Positions 2,016 through 63,914 are shown, counted from the first letter of the stretch. The stretch: 64,000 nt of DNA from Escherichia phage Bp4 (NC_024142.2); one strand, 5' to 3'. The notes: a model not told the origin generated them from the letters alone. A program made the numbers and translations.

Positions 2016-2024
2016 TTAAAACTA

Positions 2025-2699: not shown

Positions 2700-2796
2700 T
2701 ATGTCTGGATGTACTCCATCATACTAAGTATTATCTAAGAGTCATCTTATGATACGACCCTATTGGGGTTTCTAACTTTACAACTACGGTAATATT

Positions 2797-3126: not shown

Positions 3127-3371
3127 AAAGAAAGGTAGAGCTAGTACCTAACTGGAAAAGATGCTGGAAGTGGGCATCCATCCAGATTAGTACGCTCGGG
3201 TTAATTATGTTTTCTGCCATAGATATCATTCAACCAATGCTGACAGGATTACCTCGTCACATCCTGGAAGATATTCCCCATGGCTCCAATATTGTAATCG
3301 CACTGTTTGCCTTAAACATCATAGGCAGATTAATACGATTCCGACCAAAGGAAGATTCACATGAAAGCTAA
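3111..3371 (+). CDS. putative holin with two predicted TM helices
   Basis: ATG at 3111 inside ORF track 3045..3371; two hydrophobic segments (ISTLGLIMFSAIDII and IVIALFALNIIGRLI); directly upstream of endolysin. Confidence 0.45.
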   Translation: MVRRLKRKVELVPNWKRCWKWASIQISTLGLIMFSAIDIIQPMLTGLPRHILEDIPHGSNIVIALFALNIIGRLIRFRPKEDSHES

Positions 3372-6756: not shown

Positions 6757-6769
6757 GGCAGACCTTCAC

Positions 6770-7114
6770 ATGAGTAAAGAATCAACAATCGCAGGACTGG
6801 AACATCGACTGGAAGCTGCTAAAGGTGCAGTTGCACACGCAGAGGATGTACGTAAACTTCTGGAGAATCCACTGTTCCGTAAAGTAATCCTTCGACAGTT
6901 CTGTGTAGAAGATTGTGCACGTTACGTGCAGGAGTCTGGTGACCCACTGCTTGAACCGAATAACCGTGCAGATGCACTTAACATGGCTCAAGCTGCTGGT
7001 CACTTACGTCGTTGGCTCGACCTCGCCATTCGTATGGGTGAAAATGAAGCTGACGTTATTCTTCAGGTAGAAGAAGAACTCGATGCAGTTCGTGCTGAAC
7101 CCGAAGACGAATAA
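6770..7114 (+). CDS. hypothetical protein (head module)
   Basis: 114-aa ORF tightly packed between portal and scaffold-like gene. Confidence 0.45.
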   Translation: MSKESTIAGLEHRLEAAKGAVAHAEDVRKLLENPLFRKVILRQFCVEDCARYVQESGDPLLEPNNRADALNMAQAAGHLRRWLDLAIRMGENEADVILQVEEELDAVRAEPEDE

Positions 7115-7133
7115 TTAACCGGAGATATTTCCT

Positions 7134-8354
7134 ATGACTACGGAAGCTGCAACCACAGCTTCCGACATTCTCGCAATGTCGGATGATGAGATTCTGAATA
7201 TGGAAGCCCCAGCTATTATTGCTGAGGAAGATACTTCCACTCAGAACAACCCAGAAACCAACGGCGTACAGACTCCTGATGAAGAAGTTGACACCCCTGC
7301 TGTTGAAGAACTACCAACCGAAGAAACCTCCCCCGAAACTGACGCAGATGAAGATGATTCAGCAAATTCTTTAACTTCTGATAAAGTTGATGATAAAGTT
7401 GTTGACACAGAAGTTGATAGTAACGGTAAGCCGATTACTGAAGCTGAACCTTCTACTGCTGAACCAGGCCAGGAACAGAAAGAAGAAGGCAAACAGTCTG
7501 AAGGTCTGCCTGCTGACTTCAACTATAAGGAAGGTTATGAGAAGTTGATGGCTCCTTTTAAAGCTAACGGCAAAATGATTACTCCCCGTTCTCCGGAGGA
7601 GGCCATTAGCCTGATGCAGATGGGTGCTAACTATACTCGTAAGATGCAAGAACTTCAGCCGTACCGTAAGGTAATGCTGATGCTACAGAACAACGGTTTA
7701 ATGGATGAGGAAAAACTTTCTTTCCTGATTGACCTGGATAAGAAGAATCCTGAAGCCATTAAAAAGTTGTTGAAAGACTCTGGTACAGATCCTCTGGACT
7801 TTAATCCAGAAGAGGAAATTAACTACCAGGGTGGCAAACACCGTGTTACAGACACCGAAGCAGATTTTGCAACCGAAATTGACGACTTAAAGTCTACTCA
7901 AGAAGGACAAGCTACATTAGGTGTTATTAGCTCGACATGGGATGCTGCCAGTAAAGATGCTCTTTATCAGAATCGTGGCTTACTCCACACCATTCACGAA
8001 CAGCGTGAGAATGGTATTTATGACACCATTGCTAATGAAGTGAATCGTCTTCAGGTGTTAGGTCAGATTCCGGTAGGTACTCCGTTTATTCAGGCTTATA
8101 ACTACGTTGGTAACCTTCTTGCACAACAAGGAGCATTTAACCAAGTAGCTAAGCCTGAACCAGTACAAGCAGTTAAACCAGCAGTTCAGCCGGTAGTGCG
8201 TGTAGCACAACCTAAGCAGACTCTGGCTAACAGTGAGCAAGCTAAAGCAGCTTCCCTTAATCGGGCTGCTACACGTAAAGCAACACCTATTGTAAACCCA
8301 CTCGCTATGAGTGATGAAGATTTCGCTAAACTCCCAGTACCGGGTAGTCTTTAA
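7134..8354 (+). CDS. scaffolding-like protein with highly acidic N-terminal region
   Basis: 406 aa; long Asp/Glu/Thr/Pro-rich N-terminus, helical C-terminus; immediately upstream of the major capsid gene. Confidence 0.45.
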   Translation: MTTEAATTASDILAMSDDEILNMEAPAIIAEEDTSTQNNPETNGVQTPDEEVDTPAVEELPTEETSPETDADEDDSANSLTSDKVDDKVVDTEVDSNGKPITEAEPSTAEPGQEQKEEGKQSEGLPADFNYKEGYEKLMAPFKANGKMITPRSPEEAISLMQMGANYTRKMQELQPYRKVMLMLQNNGLMDEEKLSFLIDLDKKNPEAIKKLLKDSGTDPLDFNPEEEINYQGGKHRVTDTEADFATEIDDLKSTQEGQATLGVISSTWDAASKDALYQNRGLLHTIHEQRENGIYDTIANEVNRLQVLGQIPVGTPFIQAYNYVGNLLAQQGAFNQVAKPEPVQAVKPAVQPVVRVAQPKQTLANSEQAKAASLNRAATRKATPIVNPLAMSDEDFAKLPVPGSL

Positions 8355-8370
8355 ACAGGAATGAGATGAT

Positions 8371-9573
8371 ATGTTAAACTATAACGCTCCAATTGACGGT
8401 CAGAAATCTAGCATTGATGGTGCTGGTTCCGACCAGATGAATACCTATTACTGGCTGAAGAAGGCTATTATTCAGTCTCGTAAAGACCAGTATTTTATGC
8501 CTCTGGCTAACACCGTTAACATGCCGAAGAACTACGGTAAGACTGTTAAGGTGTACGAGTATGTTCCTTTGCTCGACGATAAGAACATTAACGACCAGGG
8601 TATTGATGCTAATGGTGCTACCATCGTTAACGGTAACCTTTATGGCTCTTCCAAAGACGTTGGTAACATCACTTCTAAACTGCCTCTGCTGTCAGAGAAT
8701 GGTGGTCGTGTTAACCGTGTAGGCTTTACTCGTCTGGCTCGTGAAGGCTCTATTCATAAATTCGGCTTCTTCTACGAATTTACTCAAGAGTCCTTGGACT
8801 TTGATTCTGATGACCAACTGAAAGAACACCTGTCTCGTGAACTGATGAACGGTGCTGTACAGTTGACTGAAGCTGTTCTCCAGAAAGACCTGCTGGCTGC
8901 TGCTGGTACTGTACTGTATGCAGGTGCTGCCGTCTCTGATGCTACCATTACTGGTGAAGGTTCTACCCCGTCTGTAGTTTCTTATAAGAACCTGATGCGT
9001 CTTGACCAGATTCTTACTGAGAACCGTACCCCGACCCAGACTACTATCATCACTGGTTCTAAACTGACAGATACCAAAGTACTCGGTGGTACTCGTGTAA
9101 TGTACGTTGGTTCTGAACTGGTTCCAGAACTGAAAGCGATGAAAGACCTGTTTGGTAATAAAGCATTCATCGAAGTTCAGCACTATGCTGATGCTGGTAC
9201 TCTGATGAATGGTGAAATTGGTTGTATTGATAAGTTCCGTATCATCCAGGTTCCAGAGATGCTGCATTGGGCAGGTGCTGGTGCTCAGGTTACTACTAAC
9301 CCGGGTTACCGTACCTCTATGGTATCTGGTCAGGAACACTACGACGTATTCCCGATGCTGGTAGTTGGTGATGACTCCTTCTCTACCATTGGCTTCCAGA
9401 CTGATGGTAAGTCTGTTAAGTTCACCATCATGACTAAGATGCCGGGTAAAGAAACTGCTGACCGTAATGACCCGTATGGCGAAACTGGCTTCAGTTCTAT
9501 CAAGTGGTACTATGGTATCCTGGTTAAACGTCCAGAACGTCTGGCTCTGATTAAGACTGTTGCTCCTCTGTAA
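8371..9573 (+). CDS. major capsid protein
   Basis: 400 aa, matching N4 gp56 size and position; high-expression-like codon usage; strong hairpin terminator follows. Confidence 0.6.
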
Positions 9574-14319: not shown

Positions 14320-15186
14320 ATGGCTCAGATAACGTGGAGAAATGTTGATGCACCTAACTTCTCTGGAGTTGGTGACAGCATTCGCACATTTGGTAGCATG
14401 ATTGGTAACGCCACCTCCGGCTTAAGTGATGCACTGGGTAATTTCCAGAACGCTGCCAAGCAGGAGGCTGGCAATGCCGTCATGATGAATGCTATGCAGT
14501 ACCAAGACCCGAATGAGTACCGTAATGCTTTGGCATCTGGTGCACTGTTTCAGGGGGTTGATCCTTCACTGGTAAATCAGCGTACCCTCCAAAACCTGGA
14601 TGAACGAGCAGGTACATTACTGACACAACAAGGACAGCAGGGAACCAATGACTACATTGCTTATCGCTTTGGTCGTTTACAGGATACTAACACTGCATTA
14701 GATAATGCTTCCCCGGCTATTCGTTTACTGTCTGAGGCTTATCAGTCCGGTGACCAGAACCGTATTAATGCTGCATTAAGTCAGACCCGTGATGCACTGT
14801 CTGCACTCCCTGCTGACCAACAACTGGAGATGATGGGTCGTCTACAAGGTCAGGGTGGTCAGGCTATTAATCAGGCACAGAATCGTTTTGATTTAGGTGT
14901 TGCTCAACGTAATGATGCTGACAGTCAGGCAGCTATGGGTGTAATGTCACAGATTACCCGTGGTGCTGAGAACCTAATGATGCCCGTCTGTTGGCAGAAG
15001 CATACAGTAAGAACTTGTCCCCAGTTGCACAGGCACGTTTACAGAGTTTACTGGCTAGTACTTACCGGTGTATACGGCAATGGCGTAGGTGCTGCGTCTG
15101 CTCCTGGTACTGCTGGTACTCGTCAGGGTTCCCCTTACGATGTTACTTACCAGTTTGCCGGTACATCTACCCTATTACTCAAATGA
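14320..15186 (+). CDS. hypothetical virion protein
   Basis: 288-aa ORF; its stop overlaps the next start in an ATGA arrangement. Confidence 0.45.
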   Translation: MAQITWRNVDAPNFSGVGDSIRTFGSMIGNATSGLSDALGNFQNAAKQEAGNAVMMNAMQYQDPNEYRNALASGALFQGVDPSLVNQRTLQNLDERAGTLLTQQGQQGTNDYIAYRFGRLQDTNTALDNASPAIRLLSEAYQSGDQNRINAALSQTRDALSALPADQQLEMMGRLQGQGGQAINQAQNRFDLGVAQRNDADSQAAMGVMSQITRGAENLMMPVCWQKHTVRTCPQLHRHVYRVYWLVLTGVYGNGVGAASAPGTAGTRQGSPYDVTYQFAGTSTLLLK

Positions 15187-15446
15187 GTATTGGTGATGTA
15201 ATTAAACACCAGGATGGTATGAAGTCGAATCAAGGTGCTTCACCTGTTGGTGCATTCCAGATTAACCAAGCTACTCTGAAAGACTTCGCTCCCAAAGTTC
15301 TTGGTTCAGATTGGCAAAGCCAGCCTCTTTCTCCTGAGAACCAGGATAAGATTGGTAAGGCTATCTTCGAGTCTCGTAAGAACGGTAACCTTAAAGATAC
15401 TTGGGCTGCTCTGCCTAACTCTACCCAGGTGCTTATAAGGATATGA
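15183..15446 (+). CDS. hypothetical protein
   Basis: ATG at 15183 overlapping the upstream stop (ATGA); 87 aa reading MSIGDVIKHQ...; ORF track gives 14991..15446. Confidence 0.4.
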   Translation: MSIGDVIKHQDGMKSNQGASPVGAFQINQATLKDFAPKVLGSDWQSQPLSPENQDKIGKAIFESRKNGNLKDTWAALPNSTQVLIRI

Positions 15447-16279
15447 CTTGGGAACAGATTAAACCTGTTATTGCTCAAGCTGAAGTAGGGGCTGACCCAC
15501 TTGCTATGGTTCAGAATAATCAAGGTAATCAGGCAGTATCTACTCTGGCTCAGGGTATGATTGGTACTCGTTCTATGCAGGATAACACTGGTAGTCTTAA
15601 CACAGACTTCCTTGGTACTGTCACTGATAATACCCCAGTAGGTGAGATTGCTAATCGTTTGCTGGAGGGTGATTTTAAAGGTGCTGACCGTAACTGGGTA
15701 CTGAATCGACTGAACGATATTTCTCAACGTGGGAATATGTCACCTGCTATGGCTGCTGCTGTTATGCAACGTGCACAGACTGGTGTACCAGAGGGTTATA
15801 TTAGTCGTGCTATTGATGCAGTTAATCCATTCATTACCAATGAAGCAGGTAATGGTATGCGTCTTAATGACCGTCAGGTAGAACAGTTAATCGAGGGTGT
15901 GAAACGGGGTGAACCACTGGAAGGTAGTGTTCGTAACCTTGGTCGTGCTCAAGCTATGCAGAATATTCAGGCGGCACAGACTGCATATGATGCTGCTGTA
16001 GCTGCACTGGCAAATACCCAGAATAAGATTAACACCGGACAAAGCGGTCTTACTGCTCTTTTACCTGCACGTCAGGAGGCTGTTACTAAAGCTGCTGCAA
16101 TGCTCCAAGCTGCACAGGCACAAGTACAGGCTGACCCAGCTAACCTGGCTCCAAGAGGTTTCCAGTCACAGGCTAGTGTGGATAGAGCACGAGCCAAGGA
16201 AGATGAAGAACGTGCTGCACGGTACTTACGTCAGGCACAAGGACTGCCTGAGTATATGCAACCCAGACAAAATCGGTAA
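15443..16279 (+). CDS. hypothetical virion protein
   Basis: 278-aa ORF; start overlaps upstream stop (ATGA); terminator follows. Confidence 0.45.
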   Translation: MTWEQIKPVIAQAEVGADPLAMVQNNQGNQAVSTLAQGMIGTRSMQDNTGSLNTDFLGTVTDNTPVGEIANRLLEGDFKGADRNWVLNRLNDISQRGNMSPAMAAAVMQRAQTGVPEGYISRAIDAVNPFITNEAGNGMRLNDRQVEQLIEGVKRGEPLEGSVRNLGRAQAMQNIQAAQTAYDAAVAALANTQNKINTGQSGLTALLPARQEAVTKAAAMLQAAQAQVQADPANLAPRGFQSQASVDRARAKEDEERAARYLRQAQGLPEYMQPRQNR

Positions 16280-16287
16280 TACTAATA

Positions 16288-16310
16288 AAAGCCCTACGGG
16301 GCTTTTTCTT
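16288..16310 (+). terminator. intrinsic terminator upstream of vRNAP gene
   Basis: Hairpin GCCC-TACG-GGGC followed by TTTTTCTTT. Confidence 0.5.
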
Positions 16311-16354: not shown

Positions 16355-19300
16355 TTGAACAGGAAACATGCTATGTCAACATTTGACCGTCTGGCAGGTT
16401 TCGCAGACAGCATCACTAATGCTAAGCAAGTCGATGTCTCTACTGCAACCTCTCAGAAGCAAGCTGCACAAGGGCAAAGCCCTTTCCAATTAACCCCAGA
16501 GAATGCTTACAATCTCCAGACTGGACGAGTAGGTAATCTTGGAATCGGTGCATTCGAACCAGGTTCACTTCAGGCAGATTTCACTCAAGCCTCCCCATTA
16601 GAAATCATTAATAAGTACGGTAATGAGCAAGGTTTACAAATTCTTAATAGCCGAGCTAATGCTGCTGATGTTGTACGTCAGGACTTATCTAAACAACGTA
16701 CTAACGCAGAAGCATTTGGCGATACTCTTTCTGGTGTTGGTCTTGGTGTTGCTAATACCCTTGGGGGCATTGCTGCTCTTGGTACAGGCTTGGTCAATGA
16801 TAATGCCGGGGCATCCATTGCTTCCGGTCTTGACTGGTTGAATAAAGGTGTACACAACCTACAGTCTGATGCACTGAATGCTCGTCGTAATGTAGTACAG
16901 AACCAGAACGTAATATCTGCTCAAGAGAATGAGAAACTCTATAAGCAAGATATTGCTAAAGGAGAAAGTGAACTCGTTGCTTCTCTGTCTCGTATTGGAC
17001 GAGATGCCTATGATTCTGTTGCTAACACCCTGTCTAATGACATGGCTGCTACAGATGGCCTGGCTGAAGGTGTTGGTTCATTCTTTACTGGCGGTCCACT
17101 TATCCGTGGTGTATCTGCACTTGGTAAAGTAATGGTAGGTGGTGATAAAGCTGTTAAGGGTATTACCTTAGCTGCTGAATTAGGTTATCGTCCTGCACGT
17201 ATTGCACAGACTGCTGGTCGTGTTGCTGCACCTGCTATAGCAATTGGTGGTATGGAAGCTGGTGGTGCATACCAACAGACTGCTAATGAAATTATGGAAA
17301 TGCCATTCAGTGAACTGGCTGCTAAATCTCCTGTATACCAACAGCATATTAAAGACGGTCTGTCTCCTGAAGAAGCACGTCGCCAGACTGCATCTGAAAC
17401 AGGTATCACTGCTGCTGGCTTAACTGCTCCAGTTGCTGCTCTTACTGCTCCACTGGTATCCAAGTTTGAACTTAACCCACTTAAGGTAGGTTCACTGGCT
17501 GGTGCTGGTTCTAACATGCTGCGTGAGACTGTAGAAGAAGGTATCCAGTCTGGTACAAGTCAGTTTGCACAAAACAAGGCAATTCAGGGCAATGTAGATG
17601 CTGAGCGTGATTTGCTTAAAGGTGTGGGTGAACAAACTGGTCTGGGTGCATTGTATGGCTTCGGTTCTGCTGGAGTTGCTCAAGCTCCTGGTGCAACTGT
17701 TAAGGCTGCTGGTGCTGCCGTTGGTCCTGCTGTACGTACTACCCTGGCTGGTGCTTCTTTGGCTGGTAAGGCACTAGCAAAAGTAGCTTCACCTATTACT
17801 AACATCCTGGTTCAACGTGGGGAAGAAGTTGCTAAGCGTAATGAACAAGCATCCCCCGTATCTGATGCTACGGTTAACGCTGCTGCACAAGAAGCTACTG
17901 CTCAGGCAGAACAAGCTCAAGCAACTGTTCAGGAAGCAGTGGATGCAATGGATATTTCTCCAGAAGAGAAAGCTGCTGCTACCCAGTATGCTGCTGACTT
18001 AACTCAGGCAATGAAGTTTGACCCGGTAGAATTGGAACAAACTAACCCAGCAATCCGTGAAGCTGTTTCTGGTTCCACTAACCGTGTAGAAGCTATTCAG
18101 AAGATGGCTGACTTGGTTAATACTGCCGAAGACCCTAACGTTCAAATGGAAGCTGCAATCCAGATGTATGACAATATCATGTCTATGGATAGCTTCATTA
18201 ACCGTGACCCGGGTGCTTTGGCTAATCTGGAACAAGGTTCCCCTGCTGCTGCAATCGTAGACCAATTCTCCGGCCTGATGGCTAACGTACAGAATACCCC
18301 TAAAGTACTCCGTGCATTTCGTGCCATCCATTCCATGATTCAGGAACAGGCTGAAGCGGGTAAGCTGAAAGCTACTGAAGAAGCTAATCAAGCCCAAGCA
18401 AACAACATTGCTATGGCTGCTGATGTATCTCCAGAAGTGCTGGATGCAGATTCAGTGAACATGGTTCTGAAACATGCAAGTGAAGGTAAGATTACACTGG
18501 GGAATCGTCAACGTGCTGCCCTGCAATCTGCTGCTGCCTTATTACAGGGTGCACGAGAGTTCGACGCTAAAGCAGAAGAACTAGGCTTACGTCCTCAAGA
18601 TATTGTTAGTAAACAGATTAAAACCGATGAGTCTCGTTCTAATGAAGGACAGTACTCTGCGTTGCAACATGCGAAACGCATTCGTTCTGCGTATAACTCT
18701 GGTAACTTCGATTTGGCCTCCGCTTATCTGAGCGATTTTATGAAGTTCGCCCAGCACATGCAGAATAAGGTCGGAGCGTTGAATGAGCATCTGATTTCGG
18801 GGAATGCGGATAAGAATAAGTCTGTTCATTATCAGGCTCTCTCGCCTTCCCGTGAATGGGTACGTAGTCGTACTGGCCTCGGTGTCAATCCTTACGATAC
18901 CAAGTCTGTTAAGTTTGCCCAGCAAGTAGCACTGGAAGCTAAGACCGTAGCTGACATTGCTAACGCACTTGCTACGGCTTACCCGGAGCTTAATGTTTCT
19001 CATGTGAAAGTTACCTCGTTGGATTCACGTCTGAACAAGCCAGCTGCCCAGGTAGTTAAAGAGTTCCGTCAAGGTGGTCTTGATGCCACTCAGTCTCAAC
19101 AGACTAATGAACCAGTGAATCAGGTTGATGAAACTCCTGCACTAGTGCAAGAGGACACCACTACTGTACAGCCTAAAGATAAACTAGTGGTAGAAAATAA
19201 GACTGCTCCTACTAAAGAGACTAGTCCAAAAGCAGAAGAAGTCTCTACTACTGAATCTGAAAGAGATGCTTATGTGAAAGAAAATACTATTTCACAGGAA

Positions 19301-22300
19301 ATTCTTAATAAGAATGGTGACCGTAGAGAAAGCCCTTGGTTGTTTGCTGATGGTACTGTGGTTGGTTCTAATGGCGACCATATCAGCCTGTCCGACGTAT
19401 TTGGGCATGATGGTTATCGTGATATGTCTCTGGATACTGGTGCTATTCGCTCTACCTTCTATAAAGGTAGTGAGCAACCATTTGTATCTCTGCAACTGTT
19501 TGATAATCAGAAACTGACTGCTGAACAATTCAATACTGTTCAATCTTTCGTTGAAGCAAACAATGCACTGATTCAGGTTGGTGTAGATACGTCTGGGCGT
19601 AATACCAATAATGTTGAGAAGGAAGAAGTATCACTAGCTCAACTGAAAGCAGACTATACCGTCGGTGGTAAACCTCTATCGGAAATGGAAACAGTGTTCC
19701 CTGTTTATAACAATGACAAGACACCGAACCAGTTCATTAAATCATTCTCTCTTCCAGAAGAACCTAAGTCTCGTACCATTGGTTCCGAATCTCCTTTGAC
19801 TGATGTTAAGAAAGCACTGTCTTCTGCTGCTCGCTTTGAAGCATTTACTCAAAAAGAAAATAACGCTCTCACAAGTGATGTGATTAAGCGTTACCAGGAC
19901 TTATTTGAGTTTGGTGAAACTCTGAAGACTACTCTGTCTGACCGTCTGGCTAAGTTCCTTGCTAACAAGAACGTTGGTAAACGTTTTGCGGAAGGTACTG
20001 AGGCTAACCGTTGGGTAGGTGGTAAGTTACTTAACATCGTAGAGAAAGATGGTGACACCTTTAAGTTCAATGACCAGCTATTAGAAACTGCTGTACTTGC
20101 TGGTCTGCAATGGCGATTGACTGCTACACAGAATGCTGCTGTTAAAGACATGAAAGACGTAGCTGCTATTACTGGTGTGGAAGCATCTCTGCTACCAGAA
20201 GGTATTCTGGCTGACTTCGAGAATGCTCAGACCCTGGTTGAAGCTACTAACTCACTAGCTCAAAAGATTGAATCCTATTGGGGTTTGAATCGTAATCCTA
20301 ATGCACCTTTGGGGTATACCAAGGGTATCCCAATGGCAATGGCTACAGAGATTCTGTCTTCCCTTATTGAGATGGGTGAAGTTAAAGAGTCCATGTTAGA
20401 TGTGTCTGAGATTGACCCAGAATCTAATAAGACTGTTGGTCTGTATACCATTGAGAAGCTGGATGATAACGATGCCATTAATAAATTCCCTACTGCTATT
20501 GAGGAAACTGTCCTTTTAGAACCAGTAGAGAAATTGTATCTGGGTGATGACATTCCTTCCGTGGCTCAAACTCAGTTACGTAACCCGGCTGTTAAGAATA
20601 CCCCGGAACAGAAAGCTGCTCTCAAAGCAGAACAAGCTACTGAGTTTCGTGTACATATGCCGATGGTTAATTTCTATGAAGCATTGGGTCGTGACAACAT
20701 TCTGGAGTTAATGGGTGCTGGTGCTCTTAATCCAGAATTGCTGAATGTGAATACTGCTAAGTCTCTGGAAGGTAAAAACCTGTCCGTGTCCATGGCGTAT
20801 GATTCCTTGTTTGGTGTAATCAATCAAATTAAGGAACAGGAGAATGGACTGGATACACCTATTCACTATGGCTACAACATGACCCGTGTAGGTCGTATGC
20901 AGATGCTTGGTAAGAACAACCCACAGTCCAGCAAACTGGTACGTGAAGCAATCTTACCAACCTTCTCTACCATCGACTTGAGTAATGAAAACAGTCAAAC
21001 GTTCTCTGACTTCCAGTTAGGTCTGGCTCAGGCATTGGGCATCAAAGTTCATAAAATGTCCCGTGAAGTTATGTCGGATGAGCTGACTAAAGCTCTGGAA
21101 GGTAAATTGAAACCTGCCGTTGATATGATGGTCGAGTTTGATAAGTCTGGTCACTTACCTGCTGATGCAGTGGATATTCTGAAGACTTCCTTGGGGAATG
21201 ATAAATCATTCGTAGCTCTTATGGCCCTGATGGAATATGCCCGTTACCTGAATAGTGATGATCGTGCCAACTTTAATACCCCACTGTACGTTGAAGCCGA
21301 TGGTGTAACCAATGGACCAATTAACGCAATGGTATTAATGACTGGTGGTAAGTTTACTTCAGACTGGATTAAGAATACTGCTAAGGGTGGTTTGTTCTTT
21401 GGTAAAGCTGGCAAGACTATGAACGAACACCATTCGCACGAGGATAGTGTTGACCTGTATGAAGCATCCACTAATAGTCTGCAACAGGCACTGAATGAAT
21501 TACGTAATAATTACCGTAACAACGTTCCTGTTACGAATCAGATGAAGCATCTTCAGAAGTTAATGGACCTGTTCATTAAAGACTTCAATCTTAATGAAGA
21601 TGGTACTCTGGACCTGAAACGTGGTATCGCTAAAAACCCACTGACCATTACCATCTATGGTTCTGGTGCTCGTGGTATTGCTGGCAAAATGGTAAGTGCA
21701 ATTACTGATACCATCTACGAACGCTTCAGTGACGTTCTACAAGCCCGTGCTGCTGACCCTAGCATTTCCCCAGCTATGGCTATGTTTGGTAAGGAGGCTG
21801 CGTCTGAGGCTGATGCTCAGGCTATGCTGGATACTTTCCTTACTTCTATGGAAGCACTAACTGGTAATGTTCCGGTTATGCGTAAAGGTGAGTTGTCTAT
21901 TCAGCAGGTAGATGGTGCTCTGACTGGTAAGTTAGACCCTCAGAAGTTTACTGTATCCGGTAATGCTCTGAAGAACTTACAAGAGAACATGCTTCATCTG
22001 TTCGTTGAACCAATGCGTACTGGTATCCGAAATACCGTGGGTGAAGGTCTGATGTACTCTACTGAGAACTTGCAGAAAGCTACCCAGATTCAATCTCTGG
22101 TTCTGCAAGACATGTTCCAGCAACGTGTTCAGGAGAAACTGGCAGAAAAAGAAAAAGACCCAACATGGAAGAAGGGTGATTTCTTAACACAGAAAGAACT
22201 GAATGAAATCCAGGCTTCATTATCTCCACTGGCTCCAATGATTGAGACTGGTTCACAGACTTTCTACATTGCTGGTAGTGAGAATACTGATGTTGCTAAC

Positions 22301-25300
22301 CAAGTATTGGCTACCAACTTAGATGACCGTATGCGTGTGCCAATGAGCATCTATGCTCCTTCACAGGCAGGTGTAGCAGGTATTCCATTTATGACCATCG
22401 GTACAGGTGATGGCATGATGATGCAGACCCTTTCTACTATGAAAGGTGCTCCGAAGAATACCCTGAAAATCTTTGATGGTATGAACATTGGTATTAATGA
22501 CATTACTGATGCAAGCCGTAAAGCTAATGAGGCTGTATATACTTCCTGGCAGGGTAACCCTATCAAGAATGTTTATGACTCCTTTGCTAAGTTCATGAAG
22601 AACGTAGACTTCAGCAAACTGTCTGATGAAACCAAACAAGCTATCGCTAAATCTGCACTGGAATACGACCAACGTGAGGGTGCTACTGATGACCTGTTAC
22701 GTGTTGGTGCTGAACAGATTGAACGTAATCTGCGTAACATTGCTCTGGGTGTGGATATTCGTCATAAGGTAATGGACCAGGTACAGGTCACTGTTGACCA
22801 GATGGCTGCTGTTGGTGCTCCTTATGTGAACAACGGTAAAATCTCTCTGGAAGGTCTGACTGTAGACCAGCAAGTAGCTAAGCTGAACGAACTGTTTGAT
22901 GCTGAATTAAACAAGCGTCGTGATGCAGTACGTGCTGCTAAAGCAGAACCAGTGAAAGAAGTGCCAGCAATGGAACAGGTCGGTCGTGTACTGAAGTCTG
23001 GTGTACGTCTGCTGTCTAATGCTGCCATTACTAAACTGGCTAAAGAGATGTCCCCTGAACAACAAGCAGTACTGAAAGAAATACAGAAATCTCTTGCTGC
23101 TAAAGACTATAAGGTTGTTTATGGTACGCCTTCTCAACTGGATGCCTATGCTATTGAGAAGAACATTACTCGTCCAGCACCGGAAGATATTGAAGCTGCT
23201 GAAGCAGGTAATGCATATGGCTGGACTAACTTTGAAGATAAAACCATCTACTTAGTTACCCCTTCCTTAGAGACTCTGGTTCATGAATTGGTACATGCCT
23301 CTACTTTTGAATCTGTACTAGCTCACTACGAGGGTACTCCTAACGAAGCAGTCCAGAATATTGAAGACCTGATGAACCAGTTCCGTGCTCTTGATGTTAA
23401 GAATGAATCTCCGGCAGTACGTGAAGCATATGCCGATGCACTCAATACCATTAATGGCCACTTGTCCAATGGCTTTATTGAACCAGCAATGGCTAAAGCT
23501 GCTGCACTGAATGAGTACATGGCTTGGGGTTTAACTAACCGTGAACTTATAAGTAAGCAGAAGAAAACCACTGCACTTAAAACTATGGTTCAGGCTGTAT
23601 ATGAAGCAATCAAACGTCTGGTATTCGGACGTAAGAAAGCTCCTGCTAATGCAGATGATATGTTCTCTGGCTTACTGTTTAACTCTGCTGTAGTAATGCG
23701 TGGGCAGGCTCCTACTGCTGCTGTAGCCAAAGATACTACCTTGTTCCATAACAAAGCATACGGTGACAATACTCGTCTGGAAGAGCTAGGGAAAACCTTC
23801 GATAAGCTGATTACTAACTACATTGGTTCAGAACCAGTACAGCAAGTAATTCGTAAAGGTAAGTTCTCTGATGCAGTAGTAAAAGCAACTAAAGTAACTC
23901 GTGATGTTCAGGCTCATGGCTTCACCATGAATATGCAGGAACAGCGTCTCTTCACTAACATTGTTGCTGCACTAGCTACTGAGGCTGCTATTAACCCTGC
24001 TGCTATGGCTCGTGCACAGGAATACTACACGCATGTTACTAAGAACCTGACTGTTGAAGCGTTCATGGCTGACCCGGATAGTACTAACCCTGCTGACCGT
24101 TACTATGCACAGCAGAAGTTCGATACCATCATGGGTGCTAATAACATTGAGTTTGATGCACAGGGTCGTTCTTCCTTACTACCTACCTTTGTTGGTCTGG
24201 TAATGGTAAGTGAAGAAGTACGTAAGGTGCTGGCTGATATTTCTGTTATGAAAGCAGATAAAAAATCTGGCAATACTGTTGATGCAATGCTGACTAACAT
24301 CGGTACTGCTGCAATGGCTAGTCTGAATGCTCGTGTAGCAGGTGATACTAAAGCCACTAACGTACAGGAAGGTATGGATGCACTGGCTCAGACAATCATG
24401 CAGACCAGTCTTAACGCAGAATCCTTCTATGATTCCGTTGCTACTCCTACCGGTAATGCTATCGACCGTGCTAACCAGTATTTGGTGGACTCTATTGATG
24501 CATTGTCTACCCGTGCTTTAGAAGGTGCTCGTGAAGTTGCAGCTAATACCAAGAATCCATTGGTCAAAGGTGCTGCTCATGCTGCACAACTGGTAGCTGC
24601 TATTGCTACAGAGAAGAATGGTGCAATCGTAGCCGAAGGTGTTATGGCTGCAATGAACCAGGGTAAAGTATGGCAACCTTTCCATGACCTGGTTAATGAC
24701 ATAATTGGACGTACTAAGAGCAATGCTTCTGTATATGATTTGATTAAAGCAGTACGAGCACAAGTGCAGGCTGACCGTCAACAGTTCCGTGAACACTTGC
24801 CTACCACTATCGCATCCAAGTTCAGCCGTAAACTGACTAATGATGAGTGGAAAGCAATGCATACCGGTATGGGTAAAACTGACTTAGCTGTTCTGCGTGA
24901 CACTATGTCTTTGGATGAAATCCGTGACCTGCTGACTGACCAGAAGAATGTTGACCGTGAGGTTAATAAACTGGAAGCAGATTTGCAGAAACAAGCAGGA
25001 CGTAACTGGCCCCTGATTAACCGTAAATCTAAGCAACTGGCTCAGTATATGATTAACGGTACAGTCGGTAATAACCTGCTGCGTAATGCTACTGCAATTT
25101 CTCGTTTACTGGGTGAACGTAAGACTACACGTTCTGTTGTAGATGTAGCTCAGCTGGATAAACTGATTACCCTGTATGCACTGGAAGCAATGAGTAAGAC
25201 TGACCGTGAGGTGTTATCTTCACTGGCTCAGACAGAAGTTGAAGGCATGGACTTTGCTACTTCTTACCTGGTTGGTCAGCGTAAAGACGAAATGGCTAAA

Positions 25301-27085
25301 GCCAAGTCTGATAGCCGTGCAACCTTGAACCAGTACAAAGGATACATCCCAACTGAGAACAAACAGGGTGTTAACCTGATTGTTGCTGAAGATAATCAGT
25401 TTGCTGATTTGATTGAGAAATCCTATGTACGTCTTGGTACTTATCAGGGTAGCTCTGCTAACCGGGGTCCAGCACGTAGTTACTACTTTGCACCGGTACA
25501 GGCACAGGCTCCGTTCTCACAAGGTATCCTACAGAACGTTCGAAATACTGCTGGTGGTGTAGACCTTGGTACAGGCTTTACGATGGGAACCATGGTAGCT
25601 GGTCGTATTACTGACAAGCCTTCCGTAGACCGTATCACTAAAGCACTGGCTCGTGGTGAACGTGGCAATGAACCACTGCTGCCTGTATATGATGCTAATG
25701 GTAATGTAGTTGCTTATGAGCAATCTATTGACCCTAACATGCTGAAGCACATTGAGGGTGAGAATCATCTTGCTCGTGCAATCGGTGTATGGCGTGGTCG
25801 TCAGGTGGAAGAAGCTAAGGCTCAGCGTTTCAACGATATGCTAATTGAGAACCTGCATAGCATGTATGAGAACGACATTAAGATGTCTGCTTCTAATAAG
25901 TCCCAGTACGTTAACCTTCTTGGTTCTAAACTGGACCCAGTAACTGCCGATGCCCTTAAGCTGATGAACAGTGAAACTCGTCAGAAAGCAGAAAGTCTCT
26001 TTGGTCCAGGTGAATTGTGGGTGCGTCGTGACATGCTTAATGATGCTCTGGGTTATCGTGCAGCTTCTGTAGGAGATGCCTGGTCTGGTAATTCTCGTTG
26101 GTCACCAGAAACACTGGATACCTTCAAGAAAGCTATGTTGGGTGTATTCGGCAACCGTGCCTATAAGTATGTAATGGGTGGTGAGAACCTGGTTCAGAAC
26201 TTAGTTAAAGAAGCTAAGACCCTGATTGTAGTTAAGTCAGTAGTTGTACCTGCTGTTAACTTCCTGGCTAACCTTTACCAGATGGTTGCTCGTGGTGTAC
26301 CTGTTAAGAACATTGCTAAGAGCATCCCACAAAAAACTGCTGAGATTAACCAGTATCTGAAATCTCGTCTGCGTCAGGTAGATGCAGAAGCAGAATTACG
26401 TGCAGCTACTAACCCGAACCAGATTCGTAAACTCAAGGCTGAGATTCAGTCCATCTCTGATAGCCATAAACGTTTGAGTATCTGGCCTCTGTTGGAAGCT
26501 GGTGAGTTCTCTTCAATTGCAGATGCTGGTATTGGCCGTGATGACATCCTGATTACTGAAGGTAAACTCCACGAATACATGGAAAAGCTGGCTGATAAGC
26601 TGCCTAAGTCTGTTCGTAACGCAGGTCGCTATGCACTTATCACTAAGGATACTGCTCTCTTCCAGGGTATTCAGAAGACGGTTGAGTACTCTGACTTTAT
26701 TGCTAAAGCAATCATCTATGATGAACTGACTCAGCGTAAAGGTAAGACTCGTGAAGAAGCACTGGGGCGTGTAACGGAAGAGTTCATTAACTATGACCGT
26801 CTGCCTGGTCGATTCCGTGGGTATATGGAAAGTGTTGGTTTGATGTGGTTCTACAACTTTAAGATTCGTTCTGCAAAAGTTGCAGTGTCCATGATTCGTA
26901 ATAACCCAGTACATGCTGCTATGGCTATGTTGGCTCCAACCCCTACCATGTTTGGTAACGTTGGTCTTCCTATTCAGGACAACATCTTTAGTATTGCTGC
27001 ACAAGGCAATCTTGGTTACTCCTTTGGTTTCGGTCAAGGCTTACGTGCCCACAACCTGAACCCTTGGCTCAACCTTACTAACTAA
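16355..27085 (+). CDS. giant virion-encapsidated RNA polymerase (N4 gp50-like vRNAP)
   Basis: Single uninterrupted 3576-aa ORF (10.7 kb). This size is a hallmark of N4-like phages. Last gene of the late operon, followed by a strong terminator. Confidence 0.85.
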   Translation: MNRKHAMSTFDRLAGFADSITNAKQVDVSTATSQKQAAQGQSPFQLTPENAYNLQTGRVGNLGIGAFEPGSLQADFTQASPLEIINKYGNEQGLQILNSRANAADVVRQDLSKQRTNAEAFGDTLSGVGLGVANTLGGIAALGTGLVNDNAGASIASGLDWLNKGVHNLQSDALNARRNVVQNQNVISAQENEKLYKQDIAKGESELVASLSRIGRDAYDSVANTLSNDMAATDGLAEGVGSFFTGGPLIRGVSALGKVMVGGDKAVKGITLAAELGYRPARIAQTAGRVAAPAIAIGGMEAGGAYQQTANEIMEMPFSELAAKSPVYQQHIKDGLSPEEARRQTASETGITAAGLTAPVAALTAPLVSKFELNPLKVGSLAGAGSNMLRETVEEGIQSGTSQFAQNKAIQGNVDAERDLLKGVGEQTGLGALYGFGSAGVAQAPGATVKAAGAAVGPAVRTTLAGASLAGKALAKVASPITNILVQRGEEVAKRNEQASPVSDATVNAAAQEATAQAEQAQATVQEAVDAMDISPEEKAAATQYAADLTQAMKFDPVELEQTNPAIREAVSGSTNRVEAIQKMADLVNTAEDPNVQMEAAIQMYDNIMSMDSFINRDPGALANLEQGSPAAAIVDQFSGLMANVQNTPKVLRAFRAIHSMIQEQAEAGKLKATEEANQAQANNIAMAADVSPEVLDADSVNMVLKHASEGKITLGNRQRAALQSAAALLQGAREFDAKAEELGLRPQDIVSKQIKTDESRSNEGQYSALQHAKRIRSAYNSGNFDLASAYLSDFMKFAQHMQNKVGALNEHLISGNADKNKSVHYQALSPSREWVRSRTGLGVNPYDTKSVKFAQQVALEAKTVADIANALATAYPELNVSHVKVTSLDSRLNKPAAQVVKEFRQGGLDATQSQQTNEPVNQVDETPALVQEDTTTVQPKDKLVVENKTAPTKETSPKAEEVSTTESERDAYVKENTISQEILNKNGDRRESPWLFADGTVVGSNGDHISLSDVFGHDGYRDMSLDTGAIRSTFYKGSEQPFVSLQLFDNQKLTAEQFNTVQSFVEANNALIQVGVDTSGRNTNNVEKEEVSLAQLKADYTVGGKPLSEMETVFPVYNNDKTPNQFIKSFSLPEEPKSRTIGSESPLTDVKKALSSAARFEAFTQKENNALTSDVIKRYQDLFEFGETLKTTLSDRLAKFLANKNVGKRFAEGTEANRWVGGKLLNIVEKDGDTFKFNDQLLETAVLAGLQWRLTATQNAAVKDMKDVAAITGVEASLLPEGILADFENAQTLVEATNSLAQKIESYWGLNRNPNAPLGYTKGIPMAMATEILSSLIEMGEVKESMLDVSEIDPESNKTVGLYTIEKLDDNDAINKFPTAIEETVLLEPVEKLYLGDDIPSVAQTQLRNPAVKNTPEQKAALKAEQATEFRVHMPMVNFYEALGRDNILELMGAGALNPELLNVNTAKSLEGKNLSVSMAYDSLFGVINQIKEQENGLDTPIHYGYNMTRVGRMQMLGKNNPQSSKLVREAILPTFSTIDLSNENSQTFSDFQLGLAQALGIKVHKMSREVMSDELTKALEGKLKPAVDMMVEFDKSGHLPADAVDILKTSLGNDKSFVALMALMEYARYLNSDDRANFNTPLYVEADGVTNGPINAMVLMTGGKFTSDWIKNTAKGGLFFGKAGKTMNEHHSHEDSVDLYEASTNSLQQALNELRNNYRNNVPVTNQMKHLQKLMDLFIKDFNLNEDGTLDLKRGIAKNPLTITIYGSGARGIAGKMVSAITDTIYERFSDVLQARAADPSISPAMAMFGKEAASEADAQAMLDTFLTSMEALTGNVPVMRKGELSIQQVDGALTGKLDPQKFTVSGNALKNLQENMLHLFVEPMRTGIRNTVGEGLMYSTENLQKATQIQSLVLQDMFQQRVQEKLAEKEKDPTWKKGDFLTQKELNEIQASLSPLAPMIETGSQTFYIAGSENTDVANQVLATNLDDRMRVPMSIYAPSQAGVAGIPFMTIGTGDGMMMQTLSTMKGAPKNTLKIFDGMNIGINDITDASRKANEAVYTSWQGNPIKNVYDSFAKFMKNVDFSKLSDETKQAIAKSALEYDQREGATDDLLRVGAEQIERNLRNIALGVDIRHKVMDQVQVTVDQMAAVGAPYVNNGKISLEGLTVDQQVAKLNELFDAELNKRRDAVRAAKAEPVKEVPAMEQVGRVLKSGVRLLSNAAITKLAKEMSPEQQAVLKEIQKSLAAKDYKVVYGTPSQLDAYAIEKNITRPAPEDIEAAEAGNAYGWTNFEDKTIYLVTPSLETLVHELVHASTFESVLAHYEGTPNEAVQNIEDLMNQFRALDVKNESPAVREAYADALNTINGHLSNGFIEPAMAKAAALNEYMAWGLTNRELISKQKKTTALKTMVQAVYEAIKRLVFGRKKAPANADDMFSGLLFNSAVVMRGQAPTAAVAKDTTLFHNKAYGDNTRLEELGKTFDKLITNYIGSEPVQQVIRKGKFSDAVVKATKVTRDVQAHGFTMNMQEQRLFTNIVAALATEAAINPAAMARAQEYYTHVTKNLTVEAFMADPDSTNPADRYYAQQKFDTIMGANNIEFDAQGRSSLLPTFVGLVMVSEEVRKVLADISVMKADKKSGNTVDAMLTNIGTAAMASLNARVAGDTKATNVQEGMDALAQTIMQTSLNAESFYDSVATPTGNAIDRANQYLVDSIDALSTRALEGAREVAANTKNPLVKGAAHAAQLVAAIATEKNGAIVAEGVMAAMNQGKVWQPFHDLVNDIIGRTKSNASVYDLIKAVRAQVQADRQQFREHLPTTIASKFSRKLTNDEWKAMHTGMGKTDLAVLRDTMSLDEIRDLLTDQKNVDREVNKLEADLQKQAGRNWPLINRKSKQLAQYMINGTVGNNLLRNATAISRLLGERKTTRSVVDVAQLDKLITLYALEAMSKTDREVLSSLAQTEVEGMDFATSYLVGQRKDEMAKAKSDSRATLNQYKGYIPTENKQGVNLIVAEDNQFADLIEKSYVRLGTYQGSSANRGPARSYYFAPVQAQAPFSQGILQNVRNTAGGVDLGTGFTMGTMVAGRITDKPSVDRITKALARGERGNEPLLPVYDANGNVVAYEQSIDPNMLKHIEGENHLARAIGVWRGRQVEEAKAQRFNDMLIENLHSMYENDIKMSASNKSQYVNLLGSKLDPVTADALKLMNSETRQKAESLFGPGELWVRRDMLNDALGYRAASVGDAWSGNSRWSPETLDTFKKAMLGVFGNRAYKYVMGGENLVQNLVKEAKTLIVVKSVVVPAVNFLANLYQMVARGVPVKNIAKSIPQKTAEINQYLKSRLRQVDAEAELRAATNPNQIRKLKAEIQSISDSHKRLSIWPLLEAGEFSSIADAGIGRDDILITEGKLHEYMEKLADKLPKSVRNAGRYALITKDTALFQGIQKTVEYSDFIAKAIIYDELTQRKGKTREEALGRVTEEFINYDRLPGRFRGYMESVGLMWFYNFKIRSAKVAVSMIRNNPVHAAMAMLAPTPTMFGNVGLPIQDNIFSIAAQGNLGYSFGFGQGLRAHNLNPWLNLTN

Positions 27086-27092
27086 ATGAAAA

Positions 27093-27120
27093 AGCCCCTC
27101 TAATGAGGGGCTTTTATTTT
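27093..27120. terminator. bidirectional intrinsic terminator after vRNAP
   Basis: Hairpin AGCCCCTC-TAAT-GAGGGGCT followed by TTTTATTTT; lies between convergent genes. Confidence 0.6.
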
Positions 27121-28122: not shown

Positions 28123-28170
28123 AGAGTGGTTTGAATTTGTACTTAAGCATGATTGCGTTCATCAATACTC

Positions 28171-28198
28171 AAATAAAAAAGTCCCTCCGAAGAGGGAC
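28171..28198 (-). terminator. intrinsic terminator downstream of tRNA region (minus-strand sense)
   Basis: Hairpin GTCCCTC-CGAA-GAGGGAC followed on the minus strand by TTTTTTATTT. Confidence 0.55.
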
Positions 28199-28426
28199 TT
28201 AGTAGCTTTAACGCAGCTAACGAGGCTAGGCCAGTTAACTATTACCACCGGTGCTTGTACCAGCAAACAGGATTGATAGTCCGATAATAGTTAACTGTAA
28301 TTGAGCATTATAGTCTGCTCATACTCACACCGTTAGGTATGTTTTCAATAATTAGAGTGCCGGACTGTCTCACCGGCATTGTCTTTAGAGTGCAATGCAA
28401 TCAGGACTATGTTCTCTATTAATAAG

Positions 28427-28500
28427 TACCCACTACTGGATTTGAACCAGTGACCTTCCGATTATTAGTCGGTTGCTTTCCCCGTCTAAGCTAAGTGGGC
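28427..28500 (-). tRNA. tRNA with apparent anticodon AAU (Ile-like), 74 nt, CCA not encoded
   Basis: Hand-folded cloverleaf on minus strand: acceptor GCCCACU/AGUGGGU, D-stem GCUU/AAGC, anticodon stem ACCGA/UCGGA with loop CUAAUAA, T-stem ACUGG/CCAGU with loop UUCAAAU. Confidence 0.55.
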
Positions 28501-28945
28501 ATAAATGAGTGAGTCATGCCAGACTTTAACTGGCTCCTTCTTCGCAATCCTTACATACCCCTACATAATTATTGCGTTAAGCTTATATTGTTTAAGTTTA
28601 AGTGAAGGCGTTCTTGCTGACTCATAATAGGGTGGGCGTTTGACGAATGACTAGTTCGTTACTACCCGTTTGCCATAAGTACCTGGCGACTTTGGTTTGA
28701 GGCGGGAGTCCGAGTCCTGTACAGCCTTACCGTTCACACATTGGCAGCGTATCTAGAATAGCACTTCCGGCAACTGGATTTAACTGTTACACCCCAAATC
28801 TGGTAGGGGCGTCCAGAAGTCTCATCTGGTACTTACGCCGTCGTATGGTTACGACTTACCCCCATAATCTTTCTAATTCAAAGTAGCACTGCTCCATGTT
28901 TGGCCTTTGAACTCCGGGATGGATTAGTGCAATGCTACTTTGAAT

Positions 28946-29137
28946 TGGTTACCAGTGAGGGATTCGAACCCCCGGTTGGAGTCTATAGCTTACCGCAGCA
29001 GCTCTCCAATCTAGCGGTGTCACACTTAGTCCAAACTTGAACATATCAAGCTATCTCGTGCAACTGATAATTGGTTCCGGCGTCTGGACTCGAACCAGAA
29101 CACTTATGCCGTGCACGACACTAGTACCTACACCGGA
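28946..29137 (-). other. tandem tRNA-like elements that do not fold into a canonical cloverleaf by hand
   Basis: Minus-strand T-arms GGGGG-UUCGAAU-CCCUC and UCUGG-UUCGAGU-CCAGA, each followed by acceptor 3' strand, discriminator A and encoded CCA; matching 5' acceptor strands lie at non-canonical distances (about 124 and 66 nt). Confidence 0.3.
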
Positions 29138-29204
29138 ATTAATTGCCAGGGATTCCACCTGGTCCATCTGTTTTTATAGTCACTCAGATATCGTCTGGAC
29201 TGTA

Positions 29205-29282
29205 GGCATGGGTGGGAATCGAACCCACAAACCATTCAGCACTGTAGCCTCACGCTCTACCTATTTGAGCTATCACACACCA
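29205..29282 (-). other. tRNA-like element (good T-arm and D-arm, imperfect acceptor and anticodon stems)
   Basis: Minus strand: D-arm GCUC-AAAUAGGUA-GAGC and T-arm GUGGG-UUCGAUU-CCCAC; acceptor pairs 6 of 7; anticodon stem pairs poorly. Confidence 0.3.
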
Positions 29283-29572
29283 TTGATTAACTCCCCGTTT
29301 CTAATACACGGACGAGGACACTCCATGGTCGTTTGATAATCAGGACGACTCACTCCCGACTGACGCTTGGCTTATTAGGCTGCCATCAGAACAACATCAT
29401 CGTTTGCATTTATGTTATTGGTTCGTTTCTAAAAAACCGCATAATCGCTTACGAAAACTATCAAAGAGTACACTAAGCACAGGTAGCTACCCTGCCGTCT
29501 TCTCCACCTACACCGGCTACAGTGTAAACCTCCGCACGTTAGCTTAATGTACTCATTGATAGGATGTCAGTA

Positions 29573-29642
29573 GGTCGGGGGCTGGATTCGAACCAGCGAG
29601 AGAAGTAGCGACCATCTGCACATGCCTACGTGCTACCTCGAC
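29573..29642 (-). other. tRNA-like element (about 70 nt, short anticodon region)
   Basis: Minus strand: acceptor GUCGAGG/CCCCGAC (6 of 7), D-arm GCAC-GUAGGCAU-GUGC, T-arm GCUGG-UUCGAAU-CCAGC; anticodon/variable region 2-3 nt shorter than canonical. Confidence 0.3.
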
Positions 29643-30027
29643 CATTATAATAGGAGGGAGGGGACGAGTCCTCCCTTTATACCCTATATTGCATGTAAGA
29701 CCTAACAATTCGATGCTGTAGGTAGCTATGCTATCCGACATTTAACCCAGCCATATAGGGCTTATGTGATTAAAATGCTCAACATTGAGCGGTTAGTTTG
29801 ATAAGGGATCTGAAGCCTTATCCCAAAGATACTAACCTTTGGGATATAGCCTATCATTCAGAAATGGCCCCTATAGGGAGAGGCCATTGATTAACCCGAA
29901 TGTTGCTTTACATTTTCTGTGATAACCCATTCTTAAAATAGTTTACCTGACGGATGGGGGCCACCCCTAGCGTCAGTGCCATACGGCAAAGATTAAGTTA
30001 AGAAAGGTTATGATAGGAGTTCCTATC

Positions 30028-59234: not shown

Positions 59235-59267
59235 CGCTTATTCTCCTAAATGTGATTAATAACCAAA

Positions 59268-59282
59268 AGCTGCGGAGCAGCT
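59268..59282 (-). promoter_or_regulatory. hairpin promoter candidate (N4 vRNAP-type), template-strand hairpin AGCTGC-GGA-GCAGCT
   Basis: 6-bp stem, 3-nt GGA loop on the plus (template) strand, about 35 nt upstream of the RNAP II small subunit start; shares the GCGGAGC core with two other hairpins. Confidence 0.45.
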
Positions 59283-63408: not shown

Positions 63409-63421
63409 TTACATCATCCAT

Positions 63422-63438
63422 AAGACGCGGAGCGTCTT
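63422..63438 (-). promoter_or_regulatory. hairpin promoter candidate (N4 vRNAP-type), AAGACGC-GGA-GCGTCTT
   Basis: 7-bp stem with 3-nt GGA loop on the template (plus) strand, immediately upstream of the gene starting at 63408. Confidence 0.5.
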
Positions 63439-63857: not shown

Positions 63858-63899
63858 GATGATAGCTCCAATAGTTGATGATAGGACGACATGTCCATA

Positions 63900-63914
63900 A
63901 CATGCGGAGCATGT
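63900..63914 (-). promoter_or_regulatory. hairpin promoter candidate (N4 vRNAP-type), ACATGC-GGA-GCATGT
   Basis: 6-bp stem, GGA loop, same GCGGAGC core; about 45 nt upstream of the gene starting at 63857. Confidence 0.45.

Follow-up and report, generated by a model that had tools for sequence, protein, structure and literature searches.

[quoted passage not shown] Moreover, we show that the protein departs from N4 in its gross structure at one place only: the linker that joins the N-terminal domain (NTD) to the polymerase domain (Pol) contains a discrete domain cassette. The first of these findings is already known, as the gene is deposited and correctly annotated and the family is well studied, with full-length structures available; as stated, it only places the window (the whole 64-kb stretch of Bp4 DNA that was analysed) as that of an N4/G7C-like schitovirus. 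The cassette, in turn, indicates that the tether between the two domains accepts an extra folded bead from the pool of polyvalent-protein domains in the Gamaleyavirus lineage, and that this bead has been gained or lost between genomes that are more than 90% identical.

The virion RNA polymerase gene and its borders

A preliminary description had reported a single 10.7-kb ORF of 3576 amino acids as the largest of the window and had taken it for a giant virion RNA polymerase, and both claims stand. In the ORF listing of the 64-kb window it runs from TTG to TAA at 16355..27085 on the plus strand (3576 codons), the next largest ORF having 756 amino acids, and by our own arithmetic a frame that stays open for about 3570 codons at 44% GC has a chance of about (61/64)^3570, or about e^-171. 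The TTG at 16355 is only the earliest codon at which translation could begin. The ATG at 16373, in the same frame and with an AGGAAA Shine-Dalgarno sequence 6 nt 5' of it (16361-16366), is also the start in GenBank CDS AXY81341.1 and is the most likely start of the vRNAP, giving a protein of 3570 amino acids and about 390 kDa. The gene and the hairpins at its borders are as follows:

16373..27085, plus strand: most likely vRNAP coding sequence including the stop codon (ATG with AGGAAA Shine-Dalgarno sequence; N4 gp50 orthology)
16287..16306, no strand assigned: GC-rich hairpin plus T run, in the interval from the gp51 homologue to the vRNAP gene (terminator scan)
27090..27115, no strand assigned: bidirectional intrinsic-terminator-like hairpin (stem of 11 bp) that separates the vRNAP gene from the convergent gp49 homologue

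The scan reported the upstream hairpin on the minus strand only; on the plus strand, TTTTTCTTT comes directly after it, and judging from this sequence the hairpin may also act after the upstream plus-strand gene. The downstream hairpin begins 5 nt past the vRNAP stop.

Several independent comparisons identify the product. By megablast, the CDS 'virion RNA polymerase' of MH669274.1, which is Escherichia phage PD38 (Schitoviridae, Enquatrovirinae, Gamaleyavirus Bp4), aligns with all 10,731 bases at 100.0% identity; a single base differs from the AXY81341.1 gene, at codon 3388 (GGC/GGT), and the change is synonymous. The gene is found over at least 80% of its length in 56 further phage records (57 with PD38). 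With phmmer, full-length N4 gp50 (11GP, 9PNR) is matched at E = 0 in two stretches, residues 1-966 and 1118-3569, and the crystal structures of the N4 mini-vRNAP (3Q0A, 2PO4), also at E = 0, map to query residues 1118-2189. Four Pfam vRNAP domains (vRNAP_dom_2, vRNAP_plug, N4_RNAP_helical and vRNAP_dom) fall within residues 1412-2145 at 94-337 bits against a cut-off of 27, the scores being 196 bits for PF21867, 94 bits for PF21624, 337 bits for PF21894 and 190 bits for PF21769, and PHROG 2206 'virion RNA polymerase' spans residues 25-3569 at 4119 bits. Overall, 2323 of 3466 residues (67%) are identical between the Bp4 vRNAP and N4 gp50, and nothing counts against the assignment. That the giant ORF is an artefact of assembly or annotation, in which several genes were fused through sequencing errors, is scarcely credible: 13 single-base homopolymer deletions relative to MH669274.1 elsewhere in the window, five of them in the gp51 homologue, do point to an error-prone assembly, and the pSb-1 record has its vRNAP gene annotated as three CDS, but no interruption breaks the frame, which over its whole length is collinear with the structurally solved, experimentally characterised 3500-aa N4 gp50, and 57 phage records contain this gene in full length.

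Domain map, active site and cognate promoters

Alignment of the Bp4/PD38, N4 and IME11 vRNAPs, with the N4 boundaries taken from published work (PMC13434306, PMC13492108), gives the following domain map:

16373..19075, plus strand: NTD, aa 1-901 (N4 1-906), from the alignment; 60.7% identity to N4
19076..19678, plus strand: linker 1, aa 902-1102 (N4 907-1006), a low-complexity T/E/Q/K/P-rich tether; identity not meaningful because of the cassette
19679..22945, plus strand: T7-like single-subunit Pol, aa 1103-2191 (N4 1007-2104), from phmmer, Pfam and the alignment; 71.5% identity to N4
22946..22975, plus strand: linker 2, aa 2192-2201 (N4 about 2102-2123), from the alignment and PMC13434306; 10 aa, identity not meaningful
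22976..27082, plus strand: C-terminal domain (CTD), aa 2202-3570 (N4 2123-3500), from the alignment; 69.9% identity to N4
23282..23296, plus strand: HExxH motif HELVH, aa 2304-2308, in CTD-C1, equivalent to N4 H2228

An RNA polymerase core, the absence of which from profile searches was to refute the preliminary description, is found by phmmer and Pfam, and the alignment bounds it at aa 1103-2191. Its two flanks measure 901 residues against 906 in N4 (NTD) and 1369 against 1378 (CTD) and Pol 1089 against about 1097, whereas linker 1 has 201 residues against about 100. The statement in the preliminary description that the flanks diverge across relatives is not borne out by the comparison with N4, in which the NTD (60.7%) and CTD (69.9%) are not markedly more divergent than Pol (71.5%). 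In N4, the NTD inserts into membranes and is required for injection (PMC13434306), and the CTD is autoinhibitory and needed for encapsidation (PMC13434306, PMC13492108). The HExxH motif is the zincin-like 'MPTase' of polyvalent proteins (PMC5512222, Iyer et al. 2017).

All catalytic and promoter-hairpin residues that were checked in the alignment are conserved relative to N4. With the N4 residues in mini-vRNAP numbering, motif A D1643 (21299-21301) corresponds to D559, motif B R1750/K1754/Y1762 to R666/K670/Y678, motif C D2035 (22475-22477) to D951, and R1508 of TxxGR to R424, each within an identical local context. The list of T7-like motif residues of the N4 vRNAP is reportedly that of Kazmierczak et al. 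from 2002. Likewise, the residues that read the promoter hairpin, K1199/R1204/W1214/D1985, stand in the same local context as N4 K114/R119/W129/D901. In the N4 enzyme, W129 stacks on -11G, and K114, R119 and D901 also read the promoter DNA hairpin.

The cognate promoters are present as well. Promoters of the N4 type have a stem of 5-7 bp and a loop of three purines with G in the middle. Three perfect-stem hairpins matching CCAWAANNNGCGGAGC, of the form CCAWAA-stem-GGA-stem, were found on the plus strand, against 0.00 expected by chance for the 16-nt core pattern:

59263..59282, plus strand: vRNAP promoter hairpin CCAAAA-AGCTGC-GGA-GCAGCT, syntenic with N4 4551-4566
63418..63438, plus strand: vRNAP promoter hairpin CCAT-AAGACGC-GGA-GCGTCTT, syntenic with N4 562-577 (upstream of gp2)
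63895..63914, plus strand: vRNAP promoter hairpin CCATA-ACATGC-GGA-GCATGT, syntenic with N4 93-108 (upstream of gp1)

All three lie on the template strand, each just upstream of a minus-strand ORF: the first precedes ORF 58416-59234 (-), which encodes a 272-aa gp15-like RNAP II subunit, the second the gp2-like ORF 62935-63408 (-) and the third the gp1-like ORF 63534-63857 (-). The same pattern in N4 occurs at three sites at the left end, upstream of gp1, gp2 and gp15. Since the residues are conserved and three syntenic hairpins were found, the enzyme, its DNA-reading residues and its promoters occur together in one phage. The vRNAP gene is flanked, in the N4 order, by homologues of gp52, gp51, gp49 and gp48, that of gp49 being convergent, with blastp identities to the N4 proteins of 58% for gp52, 49% for gp51, 89% for gp49 and 47% for gp48.

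Our analysis covers orthology, the domain map, the active-site and promoter-recognition residues, the cognate promoters and synteny; for packaging, ejection, membrane anchoring and autoinhibition of the Bp4 vRNAP we infer the course of events from the N4 work (PMC13434306, PMC13492108). By this analogy, a few copies of the vRNAP would be packed in the capsid. The gp52 and gp51 homologues would open the envelope channel first, and the vRNAP would be ejected afterwards, probably being threaded through the tail channel of about 30-35 Å as loosely connected sub-domains, with its NTD staying anchored in the inner membrane. Pol would recognise the three template-strand hairpins, with their 5-7 bp stems and GGA loops, and transcribe the early genes in a rifampicin-resistant manner, and this early transcription may also help to draw the genome in. 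The helical CTD, which contains the HExxH motif, would be needed for encapsidation and would autoinhibit Pol when docked on it.

The linker-1 cassette and its relatives

The cassette, through which linker 1 has twice its N4 length, is the following feature:

19262..19677, plus strand: 416-nt cassette, aa 964-1102, encoding a 139-aa alpha/beta domain (alignment, DNA comparison with IME11, AlphaFold2 model)

Its borders are sharp at the DNA level, IME11 having about 56 nt of low-complexity sequence (about 19 residues) in place of 19262-19677, and its GC content is 0.41 against 0.45 for the gene. A tblastn search of 50,697 phage records picked up the cassette segment in 27, every one a Gamaleyavirus; these amount to about half of the records that have the vRNAP gene, and with a divergent family member as the query tblastn returned the same 27 phage records and no others. 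Presence and absence vary among genomes more than 90% identical. PD38, G7C and ECBP1 carry the cassette, and IME11 and PGN829.1 do not. The insert goes unmentioned in the preprint on recombination in the G7C set (bioRxiv 10.1101/542787), within a literature check that was not exhaustive. The cryo-EM work on the N4 vRNAP from 2026 depicts linker 1 as some 100 aa of featureless tether, within a 'beads-on-a-string' protein that has to pass a channel of 30-35 Å (PMC13434306, PMC13492108).

An exhaustive HMMER scan of 1.84 billion representatives returned 21 relatives of the linker-1 domain; a word-index search for protein homologues with the insert gave 0 matches, which is probably an index limit, as HMMER found these 21. 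One relative, of 3675 aa, combines SLT, ResIII/helicase, methyltransferase and LPD39 domains and is encoded in a temperate phage, where its gene follows those for the tail; a second, of 3253 aa, has methyltransferase, ddrB-ParB and LPD39 domains and belongs to a podophage-like structural module. There are also proteins with LPD38, LPD22, SLT or InPase domains, and a stand-alone protein of 166 aa. Another relative is the vRNAP of a distant schitovirus (P0011), which is 23% identical to that of PD38 and has the domain likewise just N-terminal of Pol. A search with a 6-sequence alignment gave 12 IMG/VR loci, and a 2716-aa IMG/VR ORF combines the domain with ART-PolyVal and LPD39. Among plasmids, tblastn located it in a 1417-aa LPD7 protein encoded directly after mobC on a Vibrio cholerae plasmid. 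The domain therefore recurs in different polyvalent proteins, beside known polyvalent-protein domains and in phage structural or conjugative-transfer contexts. Some of the phage homologues adjoin tail and lysis genes.

An alignment of 19 sequences, with 25-62% identity to the PD38 domain, has eight invariant positions, namely S987, P988, L990, G994, D1002, H1003, R1026 and Q1052. The resulting unnamed family has the signature SP-L...G...DH...R...Q, and its carriers are schitovirus vRNAPs, SLT/helicase/methylase ejection proteins and the MobC-adjacent plasmid protein. With the 19-sequence alignment, AlphaFold2 predicts a compact alpha/beta domain (pLDDT 92.1, pTM 0.87); this model was used instead of the single-sequence prediction, which is poor (pLDDT 67). 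In Pfam, the PD38 domain matched 0 families at E <= 1, and no family was matched by more than one of the 19 family members, the best E-value being 0.046. Scans of the same 19 members against PHROGs, NCBIfam and PADLOC gave no match, no solved structure matches the domain, and a comparison of the family profile with PDB sequences yielded nothing credible. Among candidate folds, that of PD-(D/E)xK or tRNA-splicing-endonuclease-like nucleases was also considered for it, for which a convincing fold match and the catalytic motif would be expected. Nor is there a significant match to the named LPD families (LPD1-LPD39 in Pfam); as it is set apart from the LPDs by Pfam models alone, the linker-1 domain may be an LPD that never reached Pfam.

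Possible role of the linker-1 domain and comparison with known systems

It is established that the linker-1 domain is real, folds independently, is horizontally shuffled and travels in proteins that enter cells with foreign DNA. By analogy with N4, where linker 1 connects Pol-CTD in the cytoplasm with the NTD in the membrane, it would lie where the DNA-entry channel opens into the cytoplasm. The domain is presumably dispensable for polymerase function, because sister phages do without it. As to what it does, we tentatively lean towards a co-delivered accessory function, as an effector or a specific binder, on account of its invariant polar residues, the effector domains that accompany its relatives elsewhere and its occurrence in solo form. 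The more specific proposal, that it comes from an unnamed horizontally exchanged family, is tethered at the mouth of the DNA-entry channel and either acts as an effector directed at the host or against its defences, or binds DNA or a host factor, is a possibility that we put forward with greater reserve. If it were true, about half of the G7C-like phages would have a vRNAP that carries a swappable accessory weapon.

The main alternative, somewhat less likely in our view, is that the domain is a passive structural 'bead', a folded spacer with no host activity that alters the length or stiffness of the tether or helps in packing or threading. Its site corresponds to the flexible linker of about 100 aa in the N4 work (PMC13434306), about 130 aa would be small enough for the tail channel, some 19 low-complexity residues stand in its place in sister phages such as IME11, and the P0011 vRNAP has the domain at the same place, just N-terminal of Pol. 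However, conservation of eight invariant residues down to 25% identity, including the polar D-H pair, R and Q, exceeds the needs of a spacer, and the domain also occurs outside polymerases, both in polyvalent proteins that have effector domains and as the stand-alone 166-aa protein.

A selfish insertion, that is, a mini-intein or the remnant of a homing element which is spliced out or tolerated, would account for the size of about 139 aa, which resembles that of a mini-intein, and for a sharp-bordered presence/absence polymorphism among genomes more than 90% identical, and in G7C-like phages other polymerase genes are known to contain homing-endonuclease insertions (bioRxiv 10.1101/542787). 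Nevertheless, this origin is highly improbable. No Hint/intein or homing-endonuclease family is matched in Pfam at E <= 1, the borders (...TESE/RDAY... and ...KPLS/EMET...) have neither the N-terminal C/S nor the C-terminal HN + C/S/T, the cassette replaces rather than interrupts sequence, in a linker that is not conserved, and the homologues lie at differing places within giant proteins that are unrelated to one another. With neither a Hint profile match nor splice-junction residues, an intein or homing remnant is effectively excluded.

The natural isogenic-like pairs of phages with and without the cassette could serve to probe the action of co-injected modules and the cargo tolerance of the ejection route.

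The closest known system is AXY81341.1 of PD38 together with the orthologues of the G7C group (ECBP1, G7C, PhAPEC5, pSb-1 and others). The PD38 record has the same ATG start and the same neighbours as the gene in the window, and apart from the synonymous base it differs from the window by the 13 one-base homopolymer deletions in the latter, all outside the vRNAP gene. The vRNAP of IME11, a phage of the same genus (YP_006990621.1, 3450 aa), is 94.5% identical to that of Bp4 over all aligned positions, with 94-96% in the NTD, Pol and CTD; in contrast to the Bp4 protein, it is without the cassette.

N4 gp50 (YP_950528.1; PDB 2PO4, 3Q0A, 9PNQ/9PNR, 11GP) shares with the Bp4 protein the collinear order NTD-linker-Pol-linker-CTD, the HExxH motif in CTD-C1 and the flanking genes. 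The two differ in linker 1, which in N4 has about 100 aa and is without the folded 139-aa domain, whereas that of Bp4 has 201 aa and contains it, and in linker 2, which is about 8-10 aa shorter in Bp4. Finally, polyvalent proteins are giant multi-domain proteins delivered into the cell with DNA, and N4-like RNA polymerases fused to an HExxH MPTase are explicit members (PMC5512222). The Bp4 vRNAP, as a large multi-domain N4-like RNA polymerase with HELVH at aa 2304, fits the class as described by Iyer, Burroughs, Anand, de Souza and Aravind (2017), and in polyvalent proteins elsewhere the linker-1 domain stands alongside SLT, SWI2/SNF2-type helicase, methylase, ddrB-ParB, ART-PolyVal, InPase and LPD7/22/38/39 domains.

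Relatives of the linker domain in other replicons

Homologues of the linker domain, the folded 139-aa domain of linker 1 in the vRNAP, were found on a plasmid and on a phage-like contig. On the Vibrio cholerae plasmid NZ_CP090388.1, a member of this family is carried by a 1417-aa LPD7 protein (gene 4755-9008), where it occupies 8001-8366 (aa ~1083-1204), close to the C-terminus. This gene lies directly 3' of mobC, with a T4SS coupling protein nearby, so the domain family is common to phage-ejected proteins and to proteins that are probably transferred by conjugation. On a phage-like metagenomic contig, a solo 166-aa homologue (7294-7794) is encoded directly upstream of a ParB_N/HTH_ParB gene, and a ubiquitin-like conjugation cluster (Prok_Ub, Prok-E2, JAB, ThiF) is located ~2.4 kb from it.

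The vRNAP orthologue itself is misannotated in several GenBank records of related phages: it is labelled "gram positive anchor domain protein" in ECBP1 (JX415535) and "DNA polymerase" in PD205, HK2 and U1G, and is entered as three separate CDS in pSb-1.

Single-base differences from the PD38 record

A comparison of 22.7 kb of the window with the Escherichia phage PD38 record (MH669274.1) shows one substitution and 13 single-base deletions in the window; the deletions are at the following positions.

12296, 14972, 15066 (2 bases), 15169, 15423, 16302
27670, 29162, 29752, 29757, 29955, 30068

Eleven of the 13 are in places where MH669274.1 has the same base three or more times in a row, and those at 27670 and 29162 are at CC dinucleotides there. 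None lies inside the 10.7-kb vRNAP gene, where about six would be expected under an even spread. Five deletions break the 654-aa CDS of the homologue of gp51, an N4 ejection protein, into three ORFs.

14320-15186, first piece
14991-15446, second piece
15443-16279, third piece

The 13 deletions have the look of errors made in sequencing or assembly; alternatively, the source of the window is a near-identical isolate.

Features around the vRNAP gene and their N4 counterparts

At 27090-27115 there is a perfect hairpin with an 11-bp stem; on both strands, runs of A and of T border it. It is probably a bidirectional terminator common to the convergent vRNAP and gp49-like genes. The minus strand at ~28123-30027 has few genes, and the PD38 record contains no annotated feature there; five of the homopolymer deletions relative to that record fall in this stretch. 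It contains one solid tRNA and two weaker ARAGORN calls, both below the Rfam threshold.

28427-28500, tRNA, Rfam 64.8 bits; ARAGORN: Ile, anticodon AAT
29202-29280, weaker call, Cys-ACA
29572-29643, weaker call, Ala-CGC

The stretch is syntenic with an unannotated 1.5-kb gap between gp47 and gp48 in N4.

Three N4-type vRNAP early-promoter DNA hairpins, for which the plus strand is the template, were also located.

59263-59282, early-promoter hairpin
63418-63438, early-promoter hairpin
63895-63914, early-promoter hairpin

All have a 5-7 bp stem with a GGA loop, and the CC start site precedes the stem on its 5' side. In N4, the three sites upstream of gp15, gp2 and gp1 are their syntenic counterparts.
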